Shown here in pieces: positions 1 to 39,432 of a stretch of DNA of 39,432 bases; within the stretch, counting starts at the first letter, position 1; the number at the start of each line of letters is the position of its first letter. A program made the translations under genes and the position numbers. A model generated the notes under the pieces. The model saw nothing but the letters and a program-made list of their open reading frames with translations, had not been told where the DNA came from and did no database searches. The stretch is from the IMG/VR virus record IMGVR_UViG_2706794693_000007. One strand, 5' to 3'. This stretch comes from a virus (taxonomy: Duplodnaviria > Heunggongvirae > Uroviricota > Caudoviricetes).

Positions 1-14
1 TCGGTTTACGGGAA
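1..14. other. Half of a gix-like recombination site (TCGGTTTACGGGAA), truncated by window start
   Basis: Exact reverse complement of the left half of the site at 1306-1331; matches the GGTTTnCnGGAA-type half-site of Gin/Hin/Cin crossover sites as recalled. Confidence 0.5.
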
Positions 15-960: not shown

Positions 961-1537
961 TAACTGAGATACCGTAATCCATGTACCTCCGACTAATTTT
1001 TGCAGGGGTCTGAATGCTATAAAATCGTTTGAAGCATCAACTTTACTGTCAATCTGCAGGCCTGCCATAACATTACCGTACGCAGAGTAATATGCCCCAC
1101 CGTACATTACCTGCCTGTTCTCTGCTCCCAGCCTGATATCCTGGATATATCGGGAATCCGCATCCTGCTGTGTTATACCAGAAGTGATGTTTATGTCCTG
1201 CGTCCCGTCAAAGGGAACCCCATTAATATTTCTTGGGGTGGCGAGTCTATTCGCGGCAACGGCGGTGCCGTCCGATGGCAGAGCATTCGCCGCCCTGTTT
1301 ACCGTTTCCCGTAAACCGACGTTATCGATAAAAGCCCCTTTATCCGGAATGTCTGCGCCGTTCTGCTCCCTGCGCAGGTAACGGTTATCACCTTCGCTTT
1401 TGCTGTAAACATCCAGATTATTACGGGCGGTTCCCTTATTCTCCAGGTCGGCGAGATTCTGATCCTTCGCCAGGGCATTAACGTCAGCGGGACCAAGACT
1501 GTTTTTTGTGGCAAGCGTCCCCAGACCAAGATAACCA
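961..1537 (-). CDS. Tail fibre protein, 3' portion (end of constant part plus variable Sv part); 5' continues at 6894-7275 if the 71-bp overlap is joined
   Basis: Open frame from 1537 to stop at 961-963; translation ...[35 protein letters not shown]...[17 protein letters not shown]; first 71 nt identical to 6894-6964. Confidence 0.75.
1306..1331. other. gix/hix-like 26-bp crossover site (TTCCCGTAAACCGACGTTATCGATAA) inside the tail-fibre gene
   Basis: Two 12-bp imperfect inverted half-sites around a 2-bp core; lies at the constant/variable junction of the fibre gene. Confidence 0.55.
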
Positions 1538-1750: not shown

Positions 1751-2253
1751 GTGCAGGATGTGAGCTGTTTTTCGAAGACAGAATAAGCGGTAAGACAAGG
1801 GAGCGTCCCGGACTTAAACGCGCATTAAAGCGACTCCGGCCAGGGGATACCCTGCTGGTCTGGAAACTGGATCGCCTTGGACGCAGTATGCAGCACCTTG
1901 TCCTTTTAACAGAAGAACTCCGGCAACGCGGCGTTAACTTCCGCAGCATTACGGACAATATTGATACATCCACTCCCATGGGACGTTTCTTTTTCCATAT
2001 AATGGGCGCGCTGGCGGAAATGGAGCGGGAACTCATTATTGAACGTACACGCGCGGGTCTTGCTGCTGCCCGTGCTCAGGGGCGTCATGGCGGCAGACCT
2101 CAGAAACTGACAGAGAAAGAGCGGGAGCAAATCGCCCGTTTGCTGGCTAATGGCGAGTCCCGTAAACAAATCGCACTGATATTTGATATTGGCCTTTCCA
2201 CCCTTTATCGTTATTTTCCTGCCTCACCAGCTCCGTCACCAAAAGTACCGTGA
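1751..2253 (+). CDS. gin: Serine DNA invertase of the Gin/Hin/Cin/Pin family, N-terminal ~24 codons lost in the N-run
   Basis: Translation AGCELFFEDRISGKTRERPGLKRALKRLRPGDTLLVWKLDRLGRSMQHLV...MGRFFFHIMGALAEMERELIIERT...GGRPQKLT closely matches the Gin/Hin resolvase-type catalytic core and C-terminal HTH. Confidence 0.9.
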
Positions 2254-2338
2254 CGCTTTTTTGAATTTCCGCAAAACACATATTTTTCAGCGGTCGCTAT
2301 TCTGACTCTGTTTAATTCAGAAACAGGCAGAAAAGACG

Positions 2339-4393
2339 ATGTCAGACTCCAAGTGGAAAATGCTCTCCGCCATGCCCGGAGAGTTTTCAGTCAAGGTTGC
2401 CGGTGGCACGGTGGCATTTATTGAAAGCCCTTTCCGCCCTTCGGGTAATAAAGGGGGGATCACCTTCGCAGACTGCGTGATCCGCTTCAGCACGAAAGAG
2501 CCATTATGGGTAATGCCGGTATCCGGTAATCCCAGTGCAGAAATCACCAGTTCAGGCGTGACTGGCATCATTCCAATCACATCTGACGTGGCCGGAACGC
2601 TCACGCCCTCCGACTGGAATGCACCGGATAACGCCGGGCCTTCCGGTAGCACGAATGGCAGCAGTTCAGAGCCGGAATATTACTTTGTTGTCATTCTCGC
2701 GGGTCAGTCAAATGGCATGGCCTACGGCGAGGGGCTGCCGTTACCGGATTCGTTTGACCGCCCGGACCCACGCATTAAGCAACTGGCACGCCGCAGTACG
2801 GTAACGCCCAACGGTACGTCGTGTACATACAACGACATCATTCCGGCAGACCACTGCCTGCATGATGTTCAGGATATGAGCGGGATAAACCACCCGAAAG
2901 CTGATCTGGCAAAAGGCCAGTACGGGACTGTCGGTCAGGGGTTGCATATTGCCAAAAAACTGCTTCCCTATATCCCACAGAATGCCGGGATACTTCTGGT
3001 GCCCTGTTGTCGTGGCGGGTCAGCATTCACCACTGGAGCCGACGGCTCATTCAGTGAGGCCAGCGGTGCTTCCGCTGATTCTTCACGCTGGGGGGCCGGT
3101 AAACCTCTGTATCAGGACCTGGTAAGCCGCACCAAAGTCGCGCTGGCGAAAAACCCGAAAAACAAACTTCTGGCTGTGGTCTGGATGCAGGGAGAGGCAG
3201 ACCTTGCCTCAGGAAGCCAGCAGCATAATAGTTTATTCACGGCCATGGTTCAGCAGTTCAGAACTGACCTGGCTCCGCTTGCTGCGCAGTGCGTGAGTGG
3301 AAATGCCACCACGGTGCCGTGGATTTGCGGTGATACCACGTATTACTGGAAAAACGCTGGCACCGATAAATATGAGGCAGTATACGGTGGCTACAAAGGC
3401 AAGGAAGCACAGAAAATTTTCTTTGTACCGTTCCTGACGGATGAGAATGGACAGAGCACGCCAACGAATGCTCCGGCGGAAGACCCGGATATTGTGGCTG
3501 TCGGGTATTACGGTGCAGCATCCCGAACCCAGGGCAGTTTTGTTTCGACACAGCGTGACAGCCATTTCAGCTCATGGGCACGCAGGGGCGTCATTTCAGA
3601 CCGTCTGGCCTCAGCTATTATGCTCCATGCAGGGCGCACGGCTGAACTGATGCGTGGGCAGACCGTGACACCACCGGATGAGAAGCCGTCACCTGATACA
3701 CCATCAAAACCGTCCACGCCACCCGCAGACACCACGACGATGAGTACGCTATTTGCTTACCGGGCATCTGAGTCTGAAGGACGGTTGACACCACAGGGTT
3801 GGGCTGCCGGAGGTGGCAAGGCTCAAATCGTGGATGATGCCGGAGCCAGCGGGGGTAAGGCAATGAAACTGACCAAGGAAACAGGAAGAGCCCCCTGGTA
3901 CCTTGAGCATGATGCTGGTAATGGTGCGGACCTGCTGGGTAAAGGTGGTCTTGTCAGTTGTCGTTTTAAACTCGATGGCGCGCTTACGGCTAATCAGTAC
4001 GCACTGGCGCTGTACTGGCCGGTTTCTGCCCTGCCGCAAGGGGTTACTCTGGAAGGAAATGCCGGTCATAACCTGCTGGCATCGTTCTACGTACAGAGCG
4101 ATGCCACAGACCTTAACGTGATGTATCACAAAGGAAACACGGCGCAGAACACGAAGCTGGGGTCATTCGGCGCATTTAATAACGAATGGCATACGCTGGG
4201 CTTCCGTTTTGCCGGTAACAACAGTATTGAGGTGACGCCGGTCATTGATGGTAAGGACGGGACACCATTCATGCTGTCGCAGTCTCCGGTCGGCACGTTT
4301 ACGGCAGACAAGTTGCGCGTGACCGATATCACTAAAAATGCGACTTACCCGGTACTGATTGACAGTATCGTGGTGGAAGTGAATAACGCGTAA
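2339..4393 (+). CDS. SASA-family (sialate O-acetylesterase-like, NanS-p-like) SGNH hydrolase with N-terminal domain, Pro/Thr-rich linker and C-terminal lectin-like domain
   Basis: 684 aa; motifs YYFVVILAGQSNGMAYGEG (GQSN block) and AVVWMQGEADL (WxQGE(S/A)D block); candidate Asp/His at RDSHFS; linker TPPDEKPSPDTPSKPSTPPADTTT; start codon uncertain (weak RBS). Confidence 0.6.
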   Translation: MSDSKWKMLSAMPGEFSVKVAGGTVAFIESPFRPSGNKGGITFADCVIRFSTKEPLWVMPVSGNPSAEITSSGVTGIIPITSDVAGTLTPSDWNAPDNAGPSGSTNGSSSEPEYYFVVILAGQSNGMAYGEGLPLPDSFDRPDPRIKQLARRSTVTPNGTSCTYNDIIPADHCLHDVQDMSGINHPKADLAKGQYGTVGQGLHIAKKLLPYIPQNAGILLVPCCRGGSAFTTGADGSFSEASGASADSSRWGAGKPLYQDLVSRTKVALAKNPKNKLLAVVWMQGEADLASGSQQHNSLFTAMVQQFRTDLAPLAAQCVSGNATTVPWICGDTTYYWKNAGTDKYEAVYGGYKGKEAQKIFFVPFLTDENGQSTPTNAPAEDPDIVAVGYYGAASRTQGSFVSTQRDSHFSSWARRGVISDRLASAIMLHAGRTAELMRGQTVTPPDEKPSPDTPSKPSTPPADTTTMSTLFAYRASESEGRLTPQGWAAGGGKAQIVDDAGASGGKAMKLTKETGRAPWYLEHDAGNGADLLGKGGLVSCRFKLDGALTANQYALALYWPVSALPQGVTLEGNAGHNLLASFYVQSDATDLNVMYHKGNTAQNTKLGSFGAFNNEWHTLGFRFAGNNSIEVTPVIDGKDGTPFMLSQSPVGTFTADKLRVTDITKNATYPVLIDSIVVEVNNA

Positions 4394-4400
4394 GCAGGAT

Positions 4401-4442
4401 AAAAAAATGCCGCCGGTAAGGGAAAACAAGAAACCGGCGGCA
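4401..4442 (-). terminator. Candidate intrinsic terminator, oriented for the minus strand
   Basis: 9-bp GC-rich stem GCCGCCGGT/ACCGGCGGC with 15-nt loop; run of 7 T follows on the minus strand, only an A-rich tract on the plus strand. Confidence 0.4.
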
Positions 4443-4537
4443 AAAAGATCGTTATATCCAAAGCAAAAAATGCAGTGCACCTTTTTACCTAACAGATATT
4501 ACCGGTGTCAACACCATGTCAATAATTGGGAGGGATA

Positions 4538-4720
4538 ATGACATTTTTACAGCTTATTTTATTGTATTTCTGCACGGCAGTATGTGCGTTATATCTGGTG
4601 AGTGGTGGTTATAAGGCCATCAGAAATTATGTTCGCCGCAAAATTGAGGACGCAGCAGCTGAAAAACTCAGTAAAACAGCGCAGGTAACTCCGCTCCCAA
4701 AAGACCCGACCCAGCCCTGA
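4538..4720 (+). CDS. Small membrane protein (60 aa, one N-terminal TM helix, charged C-terminus), function unknown
   Basis: RBS GGGAGGG 3 nt before ATG at 4538; MTFLQLILLYFCTAVCALYLVSGGYKAIRNY... hydrophobic N-terminus. Confidence 0.5.
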   Translation: MTFLQLILLYFCTAVCALYLVSGGYKAIRNYVRRKIEDAAAEKLSKTAQVTPLPKDPTQP

Positions 4721-4755
4721 TTGCAGGGCTTTATTCCCGCATAAGGAGGATATAC

Positions 4756-5010
4756 ATGCCAGAAATTAAAGGCACCGTCACTGAAGACCTGGTAAAACAG
4801 GCACTGTATTCCGGTGAAGTAAATAAGTTGCTGAAAGCGCAGGTCCGCAAGGATTTTGAGGCACAAATCGACACTTACGTTGATGAAGTGCTGGCAAAAC
4901 TTATTGGGCCAGCAGTTGCGGCCAGTGATGCTGATAATGAGCCGAAAACCGACGCGCAGCCAGAGCAACCAGACCCGGCTCAGCCCGGAACTGACAGTAC
5001 CATGATGTAA
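4756..5010 (+). CDS. Hypothetical 84-aa acidic protein
   Basis: Strong RBS TAAGGAGG 7 nt before ATG; coding-like composition; hairpins downstream. Confidence 0.6.
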   Translation: MPEIKGTVTEDLVKQALYSGEVNKLLKAQVRKDFEAQIDTYVDEVLAKLIGPAVAASDADNEPKTDAQPEQPDPAQPGTDSTMM

Positions 5011-5177
5011 CAATACAAACCGGTGGTGTCCTCTGCCGGTTTGACACTAATGAAAACATCTTTGCCGCTATCCAGCCATATGTAATCGCTGGATAGTATT
5101 TCGTATTCAGAAATATAGCTGCTTATGGAGCAGTCAATCCTGCTTCCCCATCCGGGCAGGCAAATGAACCGGTATCA

Positions 5178-5471
5178 TTAGTCCGATTCACGCTTTTGTA
5201 GAATCGTTCCCAGAATGCTATACAGCTCATTAGCCTGTTGCTCCATCATTGAGACGGAGGCTATACGGTGCAAAGTGATTTCAGGAGGTGGCACACCTCC
5301 ATCTTCTTGCTGTGGAGGAAAAACATAAGATTTAATAAAAAAGTTGAAGCATATGAACTCTCCCGCACTCGAACTGTATTTGCAGGCATCTGAATAATCG
5401 GAAAAATAATCATTATAGATTTCCGCATTTTCAATCATTTTTCGATTTCTCGTCGTTACATGATTGTCCAT
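5178..5471 (-). CDS. Hypothetical 97-aa protein, convergent with the 84-aa gene
   Basis: RBS AAGAGG before ATG at 5471; AT-rich ORF with no recognisable motif. Confidence 0.5.
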   Translation of the reverse strand: MDNHVTTRNRKMIENAEIYNDYFSDYSDACKYSSSAGEFICFNFFIKSYVFPPQQEDGGVPPPEITLHRIASVSMMEQQANELYSILGTILQKRESD

Positions 5472-5594
5472 AGCAGCCTCTTACGCTGGCAATTAACCAA
5501 TTGACTTCTATAAATTAGTTGATTTGTTTGCTTTGCGGTATTCAAATGTACAATCATTCAGCACTTATGCGTTACAGCACCGTTTAAAATTAGT

Positions 5595-5680
5595 GATCAA
5601 ACTCATAAATTTTCGCTAATGACATTTCGTGTTATTTGTTGTATCAATTAAATAAATCAAATCGATCGTTTTTGTCGATC
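5595..5680. promoter_or_regulatory. Upstream regulatory region of com-mom with three GATC (Dam) sites
   Basis: GATC at 5595-5598, 5664-5667, 5677-5680, the last two inside near-direct repeats TCGATCG; Mu mom is known to be controlled through upstream Dam sites. Confidence 0.4.
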
Positions 5681-5727
5681 GATTGAGTGATAAAGATATC
5701 AACAACAAAGCAGGAGGTTATGCGGCC

Positions 5728-5928
5728 ATGTATCGAAACATACGGTGCCGACATTGTAACAAGCTACTGGCACGAGCCAGCTTCAGTTATCTGGAAGTTA
5801 AATGTCCGCGCTGTAAAACCCTCAATCAAATCACATCTCAGAGCGCCACAGAGCACCCCACATACACAAGGAAATCCTGTCGTGGGGAACAGAAAGCAAG
5901 TTACATCCCGTATCATCAGCACGCCTGA
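5728..5928 (+). CDS. com: Com-like zinc-finger translational activator of mom
   Basis: 66 aa; AGGAGG RBS 10 nt upstream; [14 protein letters not shown]...[10 protein letters not shown] with CxxC...CxxC; immediately precedes and overlaps mom as in Mu. Confidence 0.75.
5856..5887 (+). promoter_or_regulatory. Stem-loop sequestering the putative mom start codon (candidate Com target)
   Basis: CCCCAC (5856-5861) pairs with GTGGGG (5882-5887); the 20-nt loop contains AAGGA; GTG at 5882 is in the mom frame. Confidence 0.45.
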
Positions 5929-6619
5929 ACTTATTCACTATAACGACAATATCGTCGGTTATGGCTCCCGTGAGTTACGGGTTGAGACAATAAGTTGCTG
6001 GCTGGCCCGGCTGGTCGTCGTCAATAAACATTACAGCCATCGTTTCGTAAATAATTCCTACCTTCATCTGGGCATATTTTCAGAACGGGAGCTGGTTGGC
6101 GTAATGCAATGGGGTTATGCCCTTAATCCAAACAATGGTGCACGCGTCGTAACTGGCACGCAGAACCGCGAATATATGGAGCTTAACCGGTTATGGCTGC
6201 ATGACTGTATGCCGAGAAACTCCGAATCAAGGGCAATCAGTTACGCGCTCAAACTAATCAGACAACTTTATCCGCAGGTGCAGTGGGTTCAGTCGTTTGC
6301 AGATGAGCGTTGTGGCTGTCTTGGTGTCGTGTACCAGGCAAGCAATTTTGATTATGTAGGCAGTCATGAAACAACATTCTATGAACTTGATGGCGAGTGG
6401 TATCACGAGATTTGCAAGAATGCAATCAAACGAGGAGGACAGCGAGGTGAACATCTGCGGGCTAATATCGACAGAGCCAGTGTTCATAAATTCCGTCAGT
6501 TTCGTTACATCCGGTTTCTGGACAAGAGAGCCAGAAAACGCCTTAACACAAAGCTATTCAAAGTCCAGCCTTACCCAAAACCACAAACAGTTAAAACTGG
6601 TTTGAAAGAGAGTGAATGA
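5882..6619 (+). CDS. mom: Mom-like DNA adenine modification protein; start assigned to GTG 5882, uncertain
   Basis: Long ORF in the frame overlapping the 3' end of com; com-mom architecture, size about 245 aa; no ATG between com and residue ~130 so a non-ATG start is required. Confidence 0.65.
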
Positions 6620-6664
6620 ACGCTTAAAAACTCATTCTAAAACTCAAAAGAAAAGCGCCGATTT

Positions 6665-6681
6665 AGTATCAAATAAGTTGC
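6665..6681 (+). repeat. Prophage end-like repeat (GTATCAAATAAGTTGCG) just downstream of mom
   Basis: 17-nt near-match to GTATCAAATGAGTTGCC at 38755-38771 and to repeats at 38817 and 38902; preceded by GCCGATTT as at 38767. Confidence 0.45.
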
Positions 6682-6691
6682 GTATCGGCGT

Positions 6692-6893
6692 NNNNNNNNN
6701 NNNNNNNNNNNNNNNNNNNNNNNNNNNNNNNNNNNNNNNNNNNNNNNNNNNNNNNNNNNNNNNNNNNNNNNNNNNNNNNNNNNNNNNNNNNNNNNNNNNN
6801 NNNNNNNNNNNNNNNNNNNNNNNNNNNNNNNNNNNNNNNNNNNNNNNNNNNNNNNNNNNNNNNNNNNNNNNNNNNNNNNNNNNNNNNNNNNNN
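6692..6893. other. Run of 202 N (unresolved or masked)
   Basis: N characters in sequence. Confidence 0.95.
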
Positions 6894-7275
6894 TCGCCAG
6901 GGCATTAACGTCAGCGGGACCAAGACTGTTTTTTGTGGCAAGCGTCCCCAGACCAAGATAACCACGGGCCAGACGCTGGGCCTCCGCACCGGCATCAGCA
7001 ATTTCTTTCAGGTTATTTTTCCGGGAAAAGGCATTCGCAGCGATAATGGCTTTAATGGACAGCGTAAGCTGGTTTAACTGCGCCTTATCCGGCTGAATAC
7101 TGGCTTCAGCCAGAATATTCAGCAGTTCGGCCTGGAGAATATTCAGCCAGTCCTGACCAATCCAGCTGATACCTTTTTGTCCGTCACCTTCGGTAAACCA
7201 GGTGGTGGTATTACTCTGCGCCGGTGCCAGCGCAGGCATATTCGCCACGCCGGAATTATTATCAACATGAAACAT
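6894..7275 (-). CDS. Tail fibre protein, N-terminal constant part (Sc), 3' end runs into N-run
   Basis: ATG at 7275 overlapping upstream stop; MFHVDNNSGVANMPALAPAQ...[24 protein letters not shown]; last 71 nt identical to 1467-1537. Confidence 0.75.
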
Positions 7276-14909: not shown

Positions 14910-15161
14910 NNNNNNNNNNNNNNNNNNNNNNNNNNNNNNNNNNNNNNNNNNNNNNNNNNNNNNNNNNNNNNNNNNNNNNNNNNNNNNNNNNNNNNNNNNN
15001 NNNNNNNNNNNNNNNNNNNNNNNNNNNNNNNNNNNNNNNNNNNNNNNNNNNNNNNNNNNNNNNNNNNNNNNNNNNNNNNNNNNNNNNNNNNNNNNNNNNN
15101 NNNNNNNNNNNNNNNNNNNNNNNNNNNNNNNNNNNNNNNNNNNNNNNNNNNNNNNNNNNNN
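14910..15161. other. Run of 252 N (unresolved or masked) spanning the end of the tail tube gene and the start of the chaperone gene
   Basis: N characters in sequence. Confidence 0.95.
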
Positions 15162-34389: not shown

Positions 34390-34617
34390 TTAGCTGACTT
34401 GTTTCGCACCAACAGAACGGCATATTCCGCTGTAAACTTCTGTCGCACCTTCGCGATCAAGTCCGGCAGATATCACCATTCGTGTGCGGTCATTAAATTC
34501 AAAAAGTAAATCGCCACATTCTTTATTTTCGGCCAGTGAAATCACCTTCACGTTATCGAAATTAACCAGGTAAAAGCGTCCGTAAATATCAGGAATATTA
34601 AATACCGCCATAATCAC
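34390..34617 (-). CDS. Hypothetical early protein (75 aa) at the position of Mu kil
   Basis: Immediately downstream of B with overlapping stop/start; no sequence motif recognised. Confidence 0.45.
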   Translation of the reverse strand: MIMAVFNIPDIYGRFYLVNFDNVKVISLAENKECGDLLFEFNDRTRMVISAGLDREGATEVYSGICRSVGAKQVS

Positions 34618-35555
34618 ACCTGTGAGAGTAATTCAGGGTTGGTATAAACCTCTTTAAAGGCCGCATTAATATGTTTTTCTGTCAGCGCCGCGCCTTCACC
34701 GCTGGCGGTGAGCCACGCCTGGTTAAGCGTATGTGTCAGAACGCGTAACGCTCCCGGCTTTTCAGCGATAGCCTGCATGACGGCCAGCTCGGCCTCACCA
34801 CTGATCCCCCACGCCATGGCAATGGCCAGCACATCCGCCTTTTTGGCCTTGCGAAGTTGTTTTGTACGGGCAAGACGGCTGAACAGGCGCGATAAATCAT
34901 CAAAGGCGCGGCGTCCACCTTTAAACAATCCGCGCGGGTTACCAATAAGCACCATCCCGATCCCCGTGGCGTCCTGAATTGCCCGGAGTTGCTCCAGACC
35001 GTCAATACCAAGATGATCCGCCTCATCCACAATCACCAGTCCACGCGTTCCCATCAGGCGACGGCGGATGGCGCGGGATAATGCCCCTTTGTTCGCGCGG
35101 GTGTAATCAATCCCCAGCGCATCGGCCAGCTCCAGCAGACACTCCGTGACGCTGGAGTGCGCGGGTGACAGGGTGATCATCCAGGTGTTTGGTTGCTCCT
35201 GGCAGTAATTACGGGCAGTGGCCGTTTTACCCACACCCGGTACGCCCACAATAACGTTAATACAGCCCATCAGGCGAACCGCCTGAAACAGTGCGCGCAG
35301 CTCCTGGACTGTCTGAGTTTCCACAAACTGCGGCGGTTCCGGCAGTGCGCTTTGTTTATTCCAGTTCTCATACCAGGAGCGCAGGGAAGCAGCCACAGCA
35401 GCGTTATCGCCTTTATATTTTCCCTTACGGAAAGCCGATAATGTGCCGTCGGAAATTCCCGCCTCTCTGGCGATGGCATACTGCGTCAGTACGCCGCCAT
35501 CAATAAGTTCATCAATGGTCTTGATTACATCGTTAATATCGGTCATATTATTCAC
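34614..35555 (-). CDS. B: Mu B-like AAA+ ATPase (target DNA activator of transposition)
   Basis: 313 aa; Walker A VGVPGVGKT; N-terminal HTH; directly downstream of transposase. Confidence 0.9.
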   Translation of the reverse strand: MNNMTDINDVIKTIDELIDGGVLTQYAIAREAGISDGTLSAFRKGKYKGDNAAVAASLRSWYENWNKQSALPEPPQFVETQTVQELRALFQAVRLMGCINVIVGVPGVGKTATARNYCQEQPNTWMITLSPAHSSVTECLLELADALGIDYTRANKGALSRAIRRRLMGTRGLVIVDEADHLGIDGLEQLRAIQDATGIGMVLIGNPRGLFKGGRRAFDDLSRLFSRLARTKQLRKAKKADVLAIAMAWGISGEAELAVMQAIAEKPGALRVLTHTLNQAWLTASGEGAALTEKHINAAFKEVYTNPELLSQV

Positions 35556-35628: not shown

Positions 35629-37716
35629 TCAGGCCAGCGGATCACTTTCTTTTAATTTCGCTTCGAGCAGTTGCAATCCCCGCTGGAAATTACGCTCGTA
35701 TTCTTCATCAGGTTCATCGTCAGCGACCGGTTGCTGAACGGTCACCGTATTACCCACAGGGCGGTATATGTTTTCCAGCCAGGGCTCCTGCGGCTTGTGC
35801 TCCAGCACGTTGACAACCTCATCCTCGGCATCACGGATTTTTTCCTCTGCGCGTTTACGCATGCCTTTAAGGCGCTGCTGCTGTTTGTAGTATTCCGCGC
35901 TGACAGGGAAGGCTTCGCGTTTATTGCCGTCCCATACCGCCTCGCAAATCACGCTGCCATCCGGGCGGCGCACGGTAATTCGTTCGGCATCATGAATGTC
36001 ATAGCTGATAAGTACCTTACGGCCATGCTCGTCACGCAGCTCGGGCGCGTAGTAAATATTATTCAGCCAGCGTATTTCACAGCGTCTTACAGGGCGCTCC
36101 ACCATCGGCCGGAACATATCCCGCAGTTCAACATCGGACAGCCATTCAATTTCCGTGTCCTCTTCCGCCAGGCGTTTTTTTCTGAACTCCGCCGGGCTGT
36201 AATGTTTACCGTTCGGCTTCATGGGTAATTCATCGTGCGGCCGGTTGTTGTACCACTCAACACCGTCACGAATGGCATCAATCAGTTCAGACCAGGACGG
36301 TAAATCACGCATCGCTGACTGCTGCCGGGCGTTCAGCCGTTTGCCCTGTTGCAGGGCACTGAATGCCGAGCGTAAATCGCGGTTGGTTTTACGTAACGTC
36401 TCGCGATCTGCTCCTTTCCCGAAATAGGTGCGGTATTTACGGGCTATGCGCATCGGTAATGTGCGGTTAAGCCGTTCGATAATGCCCCGTCCCTGCGGAT
36501 TACCGGCAATCCCTGTCGGGTGATTAATCCCCAGTCGTGGCAGTATCCCCACAATCTCCTTATCCAGGACGTCGGCGGTTTCCCCGGAGCCATTATCCGA
36601 GTAATACAGAAACGGTTTGCCATGATGGCGAATACCGTGCTGTATGGCACCGGCTACGGCGAAAACATTTTCAGCCAGGTCAAGGCTCCAGCCCACCACA
36701 AAGCGCGTGCCACCGTCGATAACAAAGGTCACTTCCGGTGCGAATGGCCGCCCGTGAACCGGGTGCGCGCATTTCAGCTTCATGCCGTGACCGTCACCAA
36801 TCCAGACATAATTCACCGGCATTCTGGACCAGTCGCGGCGCGTGAATCCCTCAAGCTGACGGTATTCACTGCCAGTTACCCGGCCTTTTTGTTTCACCAC
36901 TTCCGGCAGTTTCTTCATTGCGCGGCGAATGGTGTCATAAGAGGGCATGATATCGAGCATATAAGGCTCATCAGCGTGCCGGTGCTGCCATTCAGCAACA
37001 AAATCCTCGTAAGCCTCGGTCATTGGTCGGCCGTTTGACTGGCGATACTGCGCCAGAAATTCGGGCAGCCAGTTAATATCTTCGGCTTTTATTTCCTGGC
37101 GTTTACCCGGTGCCAGTAAAAGCAGGCGTTCAGCGGCGTTCTGTGCCTTGTTAAAGGCCGCAATCCAGCGTTTCAGCGTGATTTCACTCAACGCGCGGCT
37201 GTTTCCCTTTTTGGCGTTCGCCGTCTCAACCATTGCCACAATGCGCTCGTCCAGTTGTGATCGTGCCAGGCTGTTAACGAGGAACCGGATAGCTTTAGCG
37301 CAGCTGAAACCGGGTTGTTGCGTGAATTTCAGCACCTCACTGACGATCGCAATGCGTGCGTCTGCCACCTGGCGCTGGTTTTCAGTCAGGGCATTGAGGC
37401 GTTCGACCATCAGTTGTGGTGATCCGCGATATGCCTCCACCGCATCAACCACGGCAGACGAGCGTCTGGCCTTTGTCACCACCGGAGCCGGTGATTCATC
37501 GGCTTTTTGCGTCATCAGTTGCAGGGCATAACGTTCGCGTAATGCCTGCTGTGTCACTTCAGGTAAACAGTCAATGCTGTATTCAAAACCTTTAGCGCCT
37601 TTCTTGCGGCGTCTGCTGGTTTCGCTGGTTGCATACTTCCTGATTGAATAGCGAACGCCTTGCTCCGTTCCCGGCATCCCCGGTAATCCAACCAGTTCTT
37701 TAACTGAAGCAAACAT
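35629..37716 (-). CDS. A: Mu A-like DDE transposase
   Basis: 695 aa; located between ner and B; size and domain order as MuA. Confidence 0.9.
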   Translation of the reverse strand: MFASVKELVGLPGMPGTEQGVRYSIRKYATSETSRRRKKGAKGFEYSIDCLPEVTQQALRERYALQLMTQKADESPAPVVTKARRSSAVVDAVEAYRGSPQLMVERLNALTENQRQVADARIAIVSEVLKFTQQPGFSCAKAIRFLVNSLARSQLDERIVAMVETANAKKGNSRALSEITLKRWIAAFNKAQNAAERLLLLAPGKRQEIKAEDINWLPEFLAQYRQSNGRPMTEAYEDFVAEWQHRHADEPYMLDIMPSYDTIRRAMKKLPEVVKQKGRVTGSEYRQLEGFTRRDWSRMPVNYVWIGDGHGMKLKCAHPVHGRPFAPEVTFVIDGGTRFVVGWSLDLAENVFAVAGAIQHGIRHHGKPFLYYSDNGSGETADVLDKEIVGILPRLGINHPTGIAGNPQGRGIIERLNRTLPMRIARKYRTYFGKGADRETLRKTNRDLRSAFSALQQGKRLNARQQSAMRDLPSWSELIDAIRDGVEWYNNRPHDELPMKPNGKHYSPAEFRKKRLAEEDTEIEWLSDVELRDMFRPMVERPVRRCEIRWLNNIYYAPELRDEHGRKVLISYDIHDAERITVRRPDGSVICEAVWDGNKREAFPVSAEYYKQQQRLKGMRKRAEEKIRDAEDEVVNVLEHKPQEPWLENIYRPVGNTVTVQQPVADDEPDEEYERNFQRGLQLLEAKLKESDPLA

Positions 37717-38754: not shown

Positions 38755-38913
38755 GTATCAAATGAGTTGCCGATTTTATAATAAATGACTAATTATTGCA
38801 CAATCGGTATCAAATAGACCTTATCCGCACATCTAGCCATCACCTGTTTTATTTCAGTATCTTACAGGTGATTTCACCTCCTTTCACTAAACCCCTTGTC
38901 GGTATCAAATGAT
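38755..38913. repeat. Prophage end region with three direct copies of a GTATCAAAT(G/A) motif (candidate transposase binding sites)
   Basis: Copies at 38755-38766, 38817-38827, 38902-38913; sequence ends ...TTCA at 38916. Confidence 0.5.
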
Positions 38914-39237
38914 TCACCTGGTTATATGTCGCCAGTCGATACCTTCCAGCAGCATCGCCAGCTGCGCCTGTGTAAGGAACACTTTGCCATCACGGGCTGA
39001 CGGCCAGGCGAAGCGCCCACGCTCCAGCCGTTTGGTCAGGAGGCACAGTCCGTCACTGGTGGACCACAGCAGTTTAACCTGACTGCCGCTGCGGCCCCGG
39101 AAAATGAAAACATGGCCGGACATGGGATCGTCTTTCAGCGCCGTCTGTACTTTCGCAGCCAGGCCGTTGAAGCCATTTCTCATATCGGTGATACCGGCAA
39201 CCAGCCAAATTTTGATCCCGGAAGGTAACGGGATCAT
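38914..39237 (-). CDS. tnpB: IS66-family TnpB (Orf2), probably with altered C-terminus at the prophage junction
   Basis: MIPLPSGIKIWLVAGITDMRNGFNGLAAKVQ...LEGIDWR characteristic of IS66 Orf2; stop codon lies in the phage-end TTCA. Confidence 0.8.
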   Translation of the reverse strand: MIPLPSGIKIWLVAGITDMRNGFNGLAAKVQTALKDDPMSGHVFIFRGRSGSQVKLLWSTSDGLCLLTKRLERGRFAWPSARDGKVFLTQAQLAMLLEGIDWRHITR

Positions 39238-39432
39238 CGCTTCAGTTCCTGTATCAGCAGAGTCAGGAGCTTTTCGCTGACATTGCCATTGAAGCGGAGC
39301 GTCCCGTGCCGGAACGTTACCTCACAGCTGATACTGAGGGTTTTCGGGTCCTCTGCGAGCGATTCTGGCTGTTCGGCAGCTGCATCGAGAGTCACAGGAA
39401 GTAGCTGGGGGCTCTCTGAAGAAGGTAATAGC
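38917..39432 (-). mobile_element. IS66-family insertion sequence fragment (tnpA-tnpB), lacking its transposase gene on this side
   Basis: IS66 orf1/orf2 pair with ATGA overlap; expected third gene replaced by prophage sequence. Confidence 0.7.
39234..39432 (-). CDS. tnpA: IS66-family TnpA (Orf1), 3' part only
   Basis: Open frame ending ...NGNVSEKLLTLLIQELKR with stop overlapping the tnpB start as ATGA. Confidence 0.6.
   Translation of the reverse strand, partial: LLPSSESPQLLPVTLDAAAEQPESLAEDPKTLSISCEVTFRHGTLRFNGNVSEKLLTLLIQELKR

Follow-up and report, generated by a model that had tools for sequence, protein, structure and literature searches.

The DNA analysed here, referred to as the window, is a stretch of 39,432 nt that holds a Mu-like prophage, host DNA beyond one of its ends and runs of N. 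Its features are listed below, with the strand given where one was assigned; for items under N the content is predicted from related prophages.

1 to 1319, no strand assigned: invertible tail-fibre (G-like) segment, with both junction states found in relatives.
1467 to 1537, plus strand: the last 71 nt before N-run 1, equal to 6894 to 6964, an overlap piece that joins 1-1537 to 6894 onward.
1751 to 6691, plus strand: block c, carrying a Gin-like recombinase gene (5' end under N-run 1, gene end at 2253), DUF6645, DUF1378, DUF826, com, mom and the repeat R3; inverted relative to the remaining prophage.
5728 to 5928: com, upstream of mom; no further gene separates this pair from the right end.
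5882 to 6619, plus strand: mom, 245 aa, from the RefSeq annotation of 100% identical DNA (mom and com have Pfam PF25680 and PF10122).
6666 to 6682, plus strand: R3, AGTATCAAATAAGTTGCG, assigned as the innermost right-end repeat and presumed, by analogy, to be a binding site of the MuA-like transposase.
6692 to 6893: N-run 2, 202 N, a gap of assembly or scaffolding; the sequences on its two sides are not adjacent in real genomes.
6692 to 6747, plus strand: predicted hidden sequence TTTTCAGCGGTATCAAATGAAATGCAAATCGGTATCAAAAAAATCGCCGCGCTATA, the 56 nt that precede unrelated host DNA at 29 independent insertion sites in relatives.
About 6701 onward, about 6723 onward and about 6747, as predicted from relatives: R2, the terminal repeat R1 and the right terminus.
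6894 to 7275, minus strand: 5' (constant) part of the tail-fibre gene, whose true continuation runs from 1466 down to about 955 and not into N-run 2.
34614 to 35555, minus strand: MuB-like ATPase, 310 aa.
35629 to 37716, minus strand: MuA-like transposase, 695 aa.
38755 to 38926, plus strand, read toward the terminus: left (c-proximal) end, with L3 at 38755, L2 at 38807, L1 at 38902 and the terminus ...GGTTATA at 38926.
38927 to 39432, minus strand: host DNA, with an IS66-family tnpB that the prophage truncates and the first part of tnpA.

The window encodes both a MuA-type DDE transposase (PF02316 and PF09299) and a MuB-type ATPase (PF09077), as judged by Pfam domains on identical proteins in the related loci L019 and L020. 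Exact-protein look-ups also gave Pfam hits to Gam and Mor, to head and tail proteins of the Mu type, to a serine recombinase and to Com and Mom. No tRNA genes were found in the window. The 992 bases preceding N-run 2 occur at 100% identity in many E. coli chromosomes, where Com and Mom are annotated, and the mom/right-end region is present at an identity of at least 90% in 233 of 5426 complete E. coli genomes. The only close matches in the phage collection were the regions labelled 'inserted Mu-like phage' in the Stx-phage records LC727881 and LC727895 (∼92-93% identity). Mu-like phages inserted at variable locations in several Stx phage genomes of a STEC lineage have been described as similar to Sp18 of O157 Sakai (PMC10132054), and the strain names and feature labels of the two records suggest that they belong to that study. 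We provisionally assign the prophage to the Sp18-like phages through its similarity to these two records and the description in that paper, rather than by an alignment to Sakai Sp18 itself. SfMu was considered as the closest relative and rejected: its tail fibre is near that of Mu (18 changes relative to Mu S'), and the genes of the Sp18 invertible region differ from Mu's. There were no SfMu records among the phage-collection matches.

Window positions 6657-6691 read GCCGATTTAGTATCAAATAAGTTGCGTATCGGCGT and are followed directly by the 202 N of N-run 2. Within them, 47 nt past the mom stop codon, lies the repeat GTATCAAATAAGTTGCG (6666-6682), which agrees at 15 of 17 positions with GTATCAAATGAGTTGCC at 38755-38771. 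This match had been reported in a first-pass annotation of the sequence, and it holds, although the repeat begins one base later than the 6665-6681 given there. The 9-mer GTATCAAAT has four exact matches in the 39.4-kb window (6666, 38755, 38807, and 38902), all on the plus strand and confined to the two prophage ends; 0.25 matches were expected, and none of 100 shuffled sequences reached four. The 16-mer GTATCAAATRAGTTGC matches at 6666 and 38755 only (0.07 expected), and R3 is more similar to this innermost left-end repeat than to the other two. R3 is invariant across 16 loci. The first-pass annotation had also noted that the motif GCCGATTT accompanies both repeats, which proved to be chance. 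The motif has three matches in the window against 2.0 expected, a number reached in 39 of 100 shuffles, and it is out of register: its copy at 6657-6664 is upstream of the right-end repeat, and its copy at 38769-38776 overlaps the left-end repeat on the downstream side. It was rejected as a part of the repeat for these reasons.

At the c-proximal end the three repeats previously noted, with that at 38755 as the innermost, were all recovered at 38755, 38807 and 38902. Comparison with an intact IS66 copy fixes the left junction exactly between 38926 and 38927, which puts the start of L1 25 nt ahead of the final phage base. The spacing is 95 bp from L1 to L2 and 52 bp from L2 to L3, with L1 set apart from the other two. 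In relatives the three left-end repeats form conserved islands separated by diverged spacers. Each end of this prophage type has three of these putative transposase sites, and in the intact prophage L006 the sites at one end are inverted relative to those at the other, an arrangement required of transposon ends. That the window shows them all on one strand is due solely to the inversion of block 1751-6691. The left end also contains, at 38839-38872, an inverted repeat with a 9-bp stem (ATCACCTGT...ACAGGTGAT) and a DNA fold z-score of −4.8. It sits in a block of ∼75 nt between L2 and L1 that is invariant where the remaining left end has diverged, and it could be a host-factor or regulatory site.

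The sequence beyond 6691 was read from relatives. Loci with the same mom region were taken from complete genomes and contigs, and additional insertion junctions were obtained from exact look-ups of Mom, baseplate J, tail-fibre assembly protein, YmfQ, and gp44. In near-identical prophages at 29 independent insertion sites, the base equivalent to window position 6691 is followed by 56 invariant bases ending in ...GCGCTATA. Beyond these bases the 29 flanks are all different and have nothing in common, with all four bases occurring at the first flank position. The 56-nt stretch holds two further GGTATCAAA repeats, and the right end of the relatives is consequently made up of three direct repeats with the core GGTATCAAA, spaced by 35 bp from R3 to R2 and by 22 bp from R2 to R1. 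R1 begins 25 nt from the last phage base, as L1 does at the left end. The relatives have a Mu-type att site at the boundary between conserved phage DNA and variable host DNA; in the window this boundary is under N. Because 56 invariant bases give way to unrelated host DNA at 29 sites, the right terminus of the window prophage is predicted to lie at about 6747, inside N-run 2, in agreement with the earlier proposal that the mom-proximal terminus is to be found just inside that run. The expected true order would be tail fibre, G segment, gin, mom, ...GGTATCAAATGAAATGCAAATCGGTATCAAAAAAATCGCCGCGCTATA, and host DNA.

An open reading frame from the GTG at 6612 stays open through the whole right end (6612-6691 and on) and reads out into the host DNA, so that gene callers yield fusion ORFs or extended host genes. 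Examples are citF, whose annotated start falls within phage DNA (L002), and a 'hypothetical protein' of 67 aa from Shigella sonnei that is present on 69 contigs.

The right terminus is ...TATA at 29 of 29 sites. At the left end the terminus reads TGTAACC in three insertions and TATAACC in the window and in five fetched prophages, which represent four distinct insertion sites since HH35 and PO06021 share one. The termini are not of the form 5'-TG...CA-3', and the first-pass expectation of an end in CA is contradicted by the uniform TA of the right end. Exact 4-bp repeats flank all seven prophages for which both ends could be read (AACA, GACG, TACG, TAGA, ATAA, ACTG, and GGAG), and a duplication of 5 bp is excluded in five of the seven. 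For the insertion in ybaE, the empty site rebuilt by removal of one 4-bp copy aligned at 160 of 160 positions, free of gaps, to thousands of genomes. The 5-bp target duplication anticipated by the first-pass annotation is thus replaced by one of 4 bp, found in every two-ended prophage and in a reconstructed empty site. The relatives used for the termini and duplications were L005, L006, L012, L013, L016, and L053-L060. These data make it probable that Sp18-type phages transpose with a stagger of 4 bp rather than 5 bp and that they tolerate TA-3' in place of CA-3', the right end having it without exception. Our literature search found no description of a 4-bp stagger or TA termini in Sp18-type Mu-like phages, and no publication that describes this family's end repeats, its termini or how long its duplication is.

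When the window is mapped on the intact prophage L006, 1-1537 (the invertible tail-fibre segment and 200 nt of the fibre constant part) matches in reverse orientation, 1751-6691 (gin to mom) matches forward, and 6894-38926 (from the fibre constant part back to the left end) again matches in reverse. Positions 1467-1537 and 6894-6964 are identical over 71 nt. The window has no other long exact direct repeat, and the Sv/S'v arms are its only other exact repeat of at least 25 nt. Merging the sequence at the overlap gives an intact tail-fibre ORF of 296 aa, identical to the annotated protein of strain DLI.5a. The 71-nt identity and the restored tail-fibre gene indicate that 1-1537 and 6894 onward are truly adjacent. 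The join of mom to the fibre gene seen in the window was absent from all complete E. coli genomes searched, and in all of the 30-odd neighbourhoods that were fetched the tail fibre is followed by the G segment, gin, DUF6645, com, mom, the right end and the host. Among them is CP180015.1, a complete genome that shares 100% identity with the window along 4256 nt of the tail region and whose right-end fusion ORF carries a Shigella sonnei label in protein records. The first-pass annotation had described a run of N at 6692-6893, tail-fibre DNA beyond it and two sides that could not be contiguous. All of this stands: the run is 202 N long, the DNA past it, on the minus strand, belongs to the 5' portion of the tail-fibre gene, and the overlap, the intact merged gene and the inverted right-end block show that the two sides are not neighbours.

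Two other accounts of the block were discarded. Block 1751-6691 is not a second phage nested in the tail-fibre gene, since the 71-nt identity is an overlap of pieces that restores the gene and not a target duplication. A Gin-mediated inversion with a breakpoint at attR was rejected because adjacent pieces overlap by 71 nt and together restore an intact gene.

The first base of the window falls at the crossover dinucleotide of a gix-like site (TC, then GGTTTACGGGAA), which occupies window positions 1-14; a second gix-like site is at 1306-1331. The 26-bp gix-like sites are TTATCGATAACGTCGGTTTACGGGAA, within the tail-fibre gene, and TTCCCGTAAACCGAGGTTTTCAGGAA, adjoining the serine recombinase. 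Near-identical prophages carry segment 1-1319 in either orientation, and matches end at ∼1336 in genomes with the flipped segment. Piece 1-1537 stands next to gin in the window and carries the junction of the opposite G state, 1320-1537 being the fibre constant part. The succession of 1-1537 and gin therefore combines junctions of both G states, an arrangement that is impossible for a single molecule. The recombinase is annotated as frameshifted in DLI.5a and TOE17, the two genomes that match 1-1537 at 100%.

The arrangement of the window is most likely a scaffolding artefact. Inversion of the tail-fibre segment in the sequenced culture would have left both G states present. One state would link 1-1319 to gin (order piece a, block c) and the other would link it to the fibre constant part (piece a, piece e). 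A scaffolder given both links may then have set 1751-6691 upside down between the overlapping pieces 1-1537 and 6894 onward. Mixed G states together with the scaffolder are the likely cause of the misjoin, in a model that does not account in detail for the gap sizes of 213 and 202.

Alternatively, the arrangement might be real, the 6.7-kb right block from the G segment to attR having been inverted in the source strain, for example through recombination of inverted IS copies or through the action of Gin on a secondary site. In that case the right end and the tail-fibre gene would be true neighbours, and a prophage with its two ends in direct orientation would be immobile. The four visible end repeats are indeed all on the same strand, Shigella-type genomes are rich in IS elements, and another draft scaffold that carries a closely related prophage (L062; FUAQ01000016.1, 3200-4700) has a similar fold-back, reading mom on the plus strand, the right end, 65 bp, an IS and then tail fibre on the minus strand. 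The join in that scaffold, however, is a single N exactly at the IS end, leading into the middle of a tail-fibre assembly gene; it occurs in one of the 24 contigs read, and the complete genome of the same group shows the normal order. Inversions do not duplicate 71 nt, whereas merging 1-1537 with 6894 onward restores an intact gene, and the window join occurs in no complete E. coli genome. The presence beside gin of a junction of the opposite G state also cannot be reconciled with any single molecule. We consider a real inversion unlikely.

Stored genomes are described as having some stretches masked as N, and the runs could on that basis be length-preserving masks over contiguous sequence, with 202 real bases joining 6691 to 6894. 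This reading is more doubtful still. N-run 3 (14910-15161, in the tail tube/tail assembly genes), which is collinear in contrast to N-runs 1 and 2, has 252 N where relatives with 100% identical flanks have 242 coding bases, so that the run lengths must be estimates of the kind used for scaffold gaps. None of the genomes examined has the two sides of N-run 1, or those of N-run 2, next to each other, and the outer flank of one run overlaps that of the other. Finally, the position of 6666-6682 just 47 nt after the mom stop codon, as the single copy visible at the right end of the window, would suit a similarity that arose by chance, or a terminator or regulatory site that lies downstream of mom, but this is highly improbable given motif statistics far above chance, the two further copies that every relative has at 35 and 22 bp, up to the boundary of phage and host, and conservation of the same core at the left end over diverged relatives.

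We are confident, for these reasons, that 6666-6682 is the innermost of three right-end (attR) repeats of a Mu-like prophage, provisionally of the Sp18 type, that the outer two repeats and the terminus fall in the gap, and that the gap is a misjoin. If the relatives are a reliable guide, the first 56 positions of N-run 2 would contain the two outer repeats and the terminus. In practical terms, the window is not readable as a contiguous prophage, since 1751-6691 is wrongly oriented, and neither the true right end nor the host junction forming a pair with the one in IS66 at 38926 is present in the window.

At the left end, insertion of the prophage in IS66 tnpB creates a 107-aa fusion ORF (38914-39237, minus strand), for which the relatives are L019 and L020. 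The exact 107-aa ORF was found in 110 collection blocks, 108 of them with contigs of 20-50 kb, and in the complete genome CP176614.1. The attL/IS66 junction had no match in the set of complete E. coli genomes searched, and no exact match in the collections of genome contigs and viral contigs. The partner junction is predicted to read GCGCTATA followed directly by GACAGCC in IS66 tnpB, with a 4-bp GACA duplication, and the flank would be expected as GACAGCCTAAGCGG if the insertion is undisturbed. A search for this right-end/IS66 junction gave no match, and the fusion ORFs predicted under the 4-bp and 5-bp models were absent from the protein collection, in which a positive control was found. In CP180015.1, the closest complete genome, the right flank starts with GTAT and consists of 65 bp of other DNA followed by a 1264-bp IS, and from this it may be that the flanks were rearranged later in the lineage of the window. 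The same 1264-bp IS is also present ∼500 bp outside the left junction in L019.

By analogy with Mu, the MuA-like transposase would bind the three repeats at each end and pair the two ends. It would nick after the terminal A (...TATA-3') and attach the ends to the target at a stagger of 4 bp, with the MuB-like ATPase assisting. Given a 4-bp stagger and TA-3' ends, the transpososome of the Sp18-type phages would differ from that of MuA in geometry and in end recognition. The 4-bp duplications and TA termini, found over many independent insertions, are a small and testable departure from the Mu paradigm. The feature at 6666-6682 itself has little biological weight, being the expected right end of a common and already recognised E. 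coli/Shigella prophage family, cut by an assembly gap.

The feature is already known in kind, as the ordinary right end of a known transposable prophage type. Sp18 is a Mu-like prophage reported to be packaged, not to be circularised and to have an invertible host-range region (PMC2669165). The window prophage appears to share with Sp18 and the Sp18-like phages the same gene set and order (c, A, B, head, tail, invertible segment, gin, com, mom), an invertible host-range segment distinct from that of Mu, and insertion sites that vary by strain. The copies of the O157 type are only ∼81% identical in the left-end region, with the repeats conserved.

The invertible segment resembles the G segment and Gin-gix system of Mu in its gix-like sites, which are very close to those of Mu, in its serine recombinase and in the alternative C termini of the tail fibre; the fibre genes here are unlike those of Mu. 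Gin-gix bears on the present feature solely as a likely cause of the misassembly and is not part of the end repeat. The prophage ends themselves are similar to those of Mu in having three repeats of ∼22 bp at each end, of which the terminal repeat keeps a fixed distance to the end, right-end sites that are tightly packed and an L1 that stands apart at the left end. The right end follows directly after mom, the proteins are of the MuA and MuB types, and the insertion sites appear random, again as in Mu. The sequence of the end repeats is unrelated to the Mu consensus. The ends differ further from those of Mu in that all three right-end repeats have the same direction, the right terminus is TA-3' at all 29 sites with CA or TA at the left, and the target duplication is 4 bp compared with the 5 bp of Mu.
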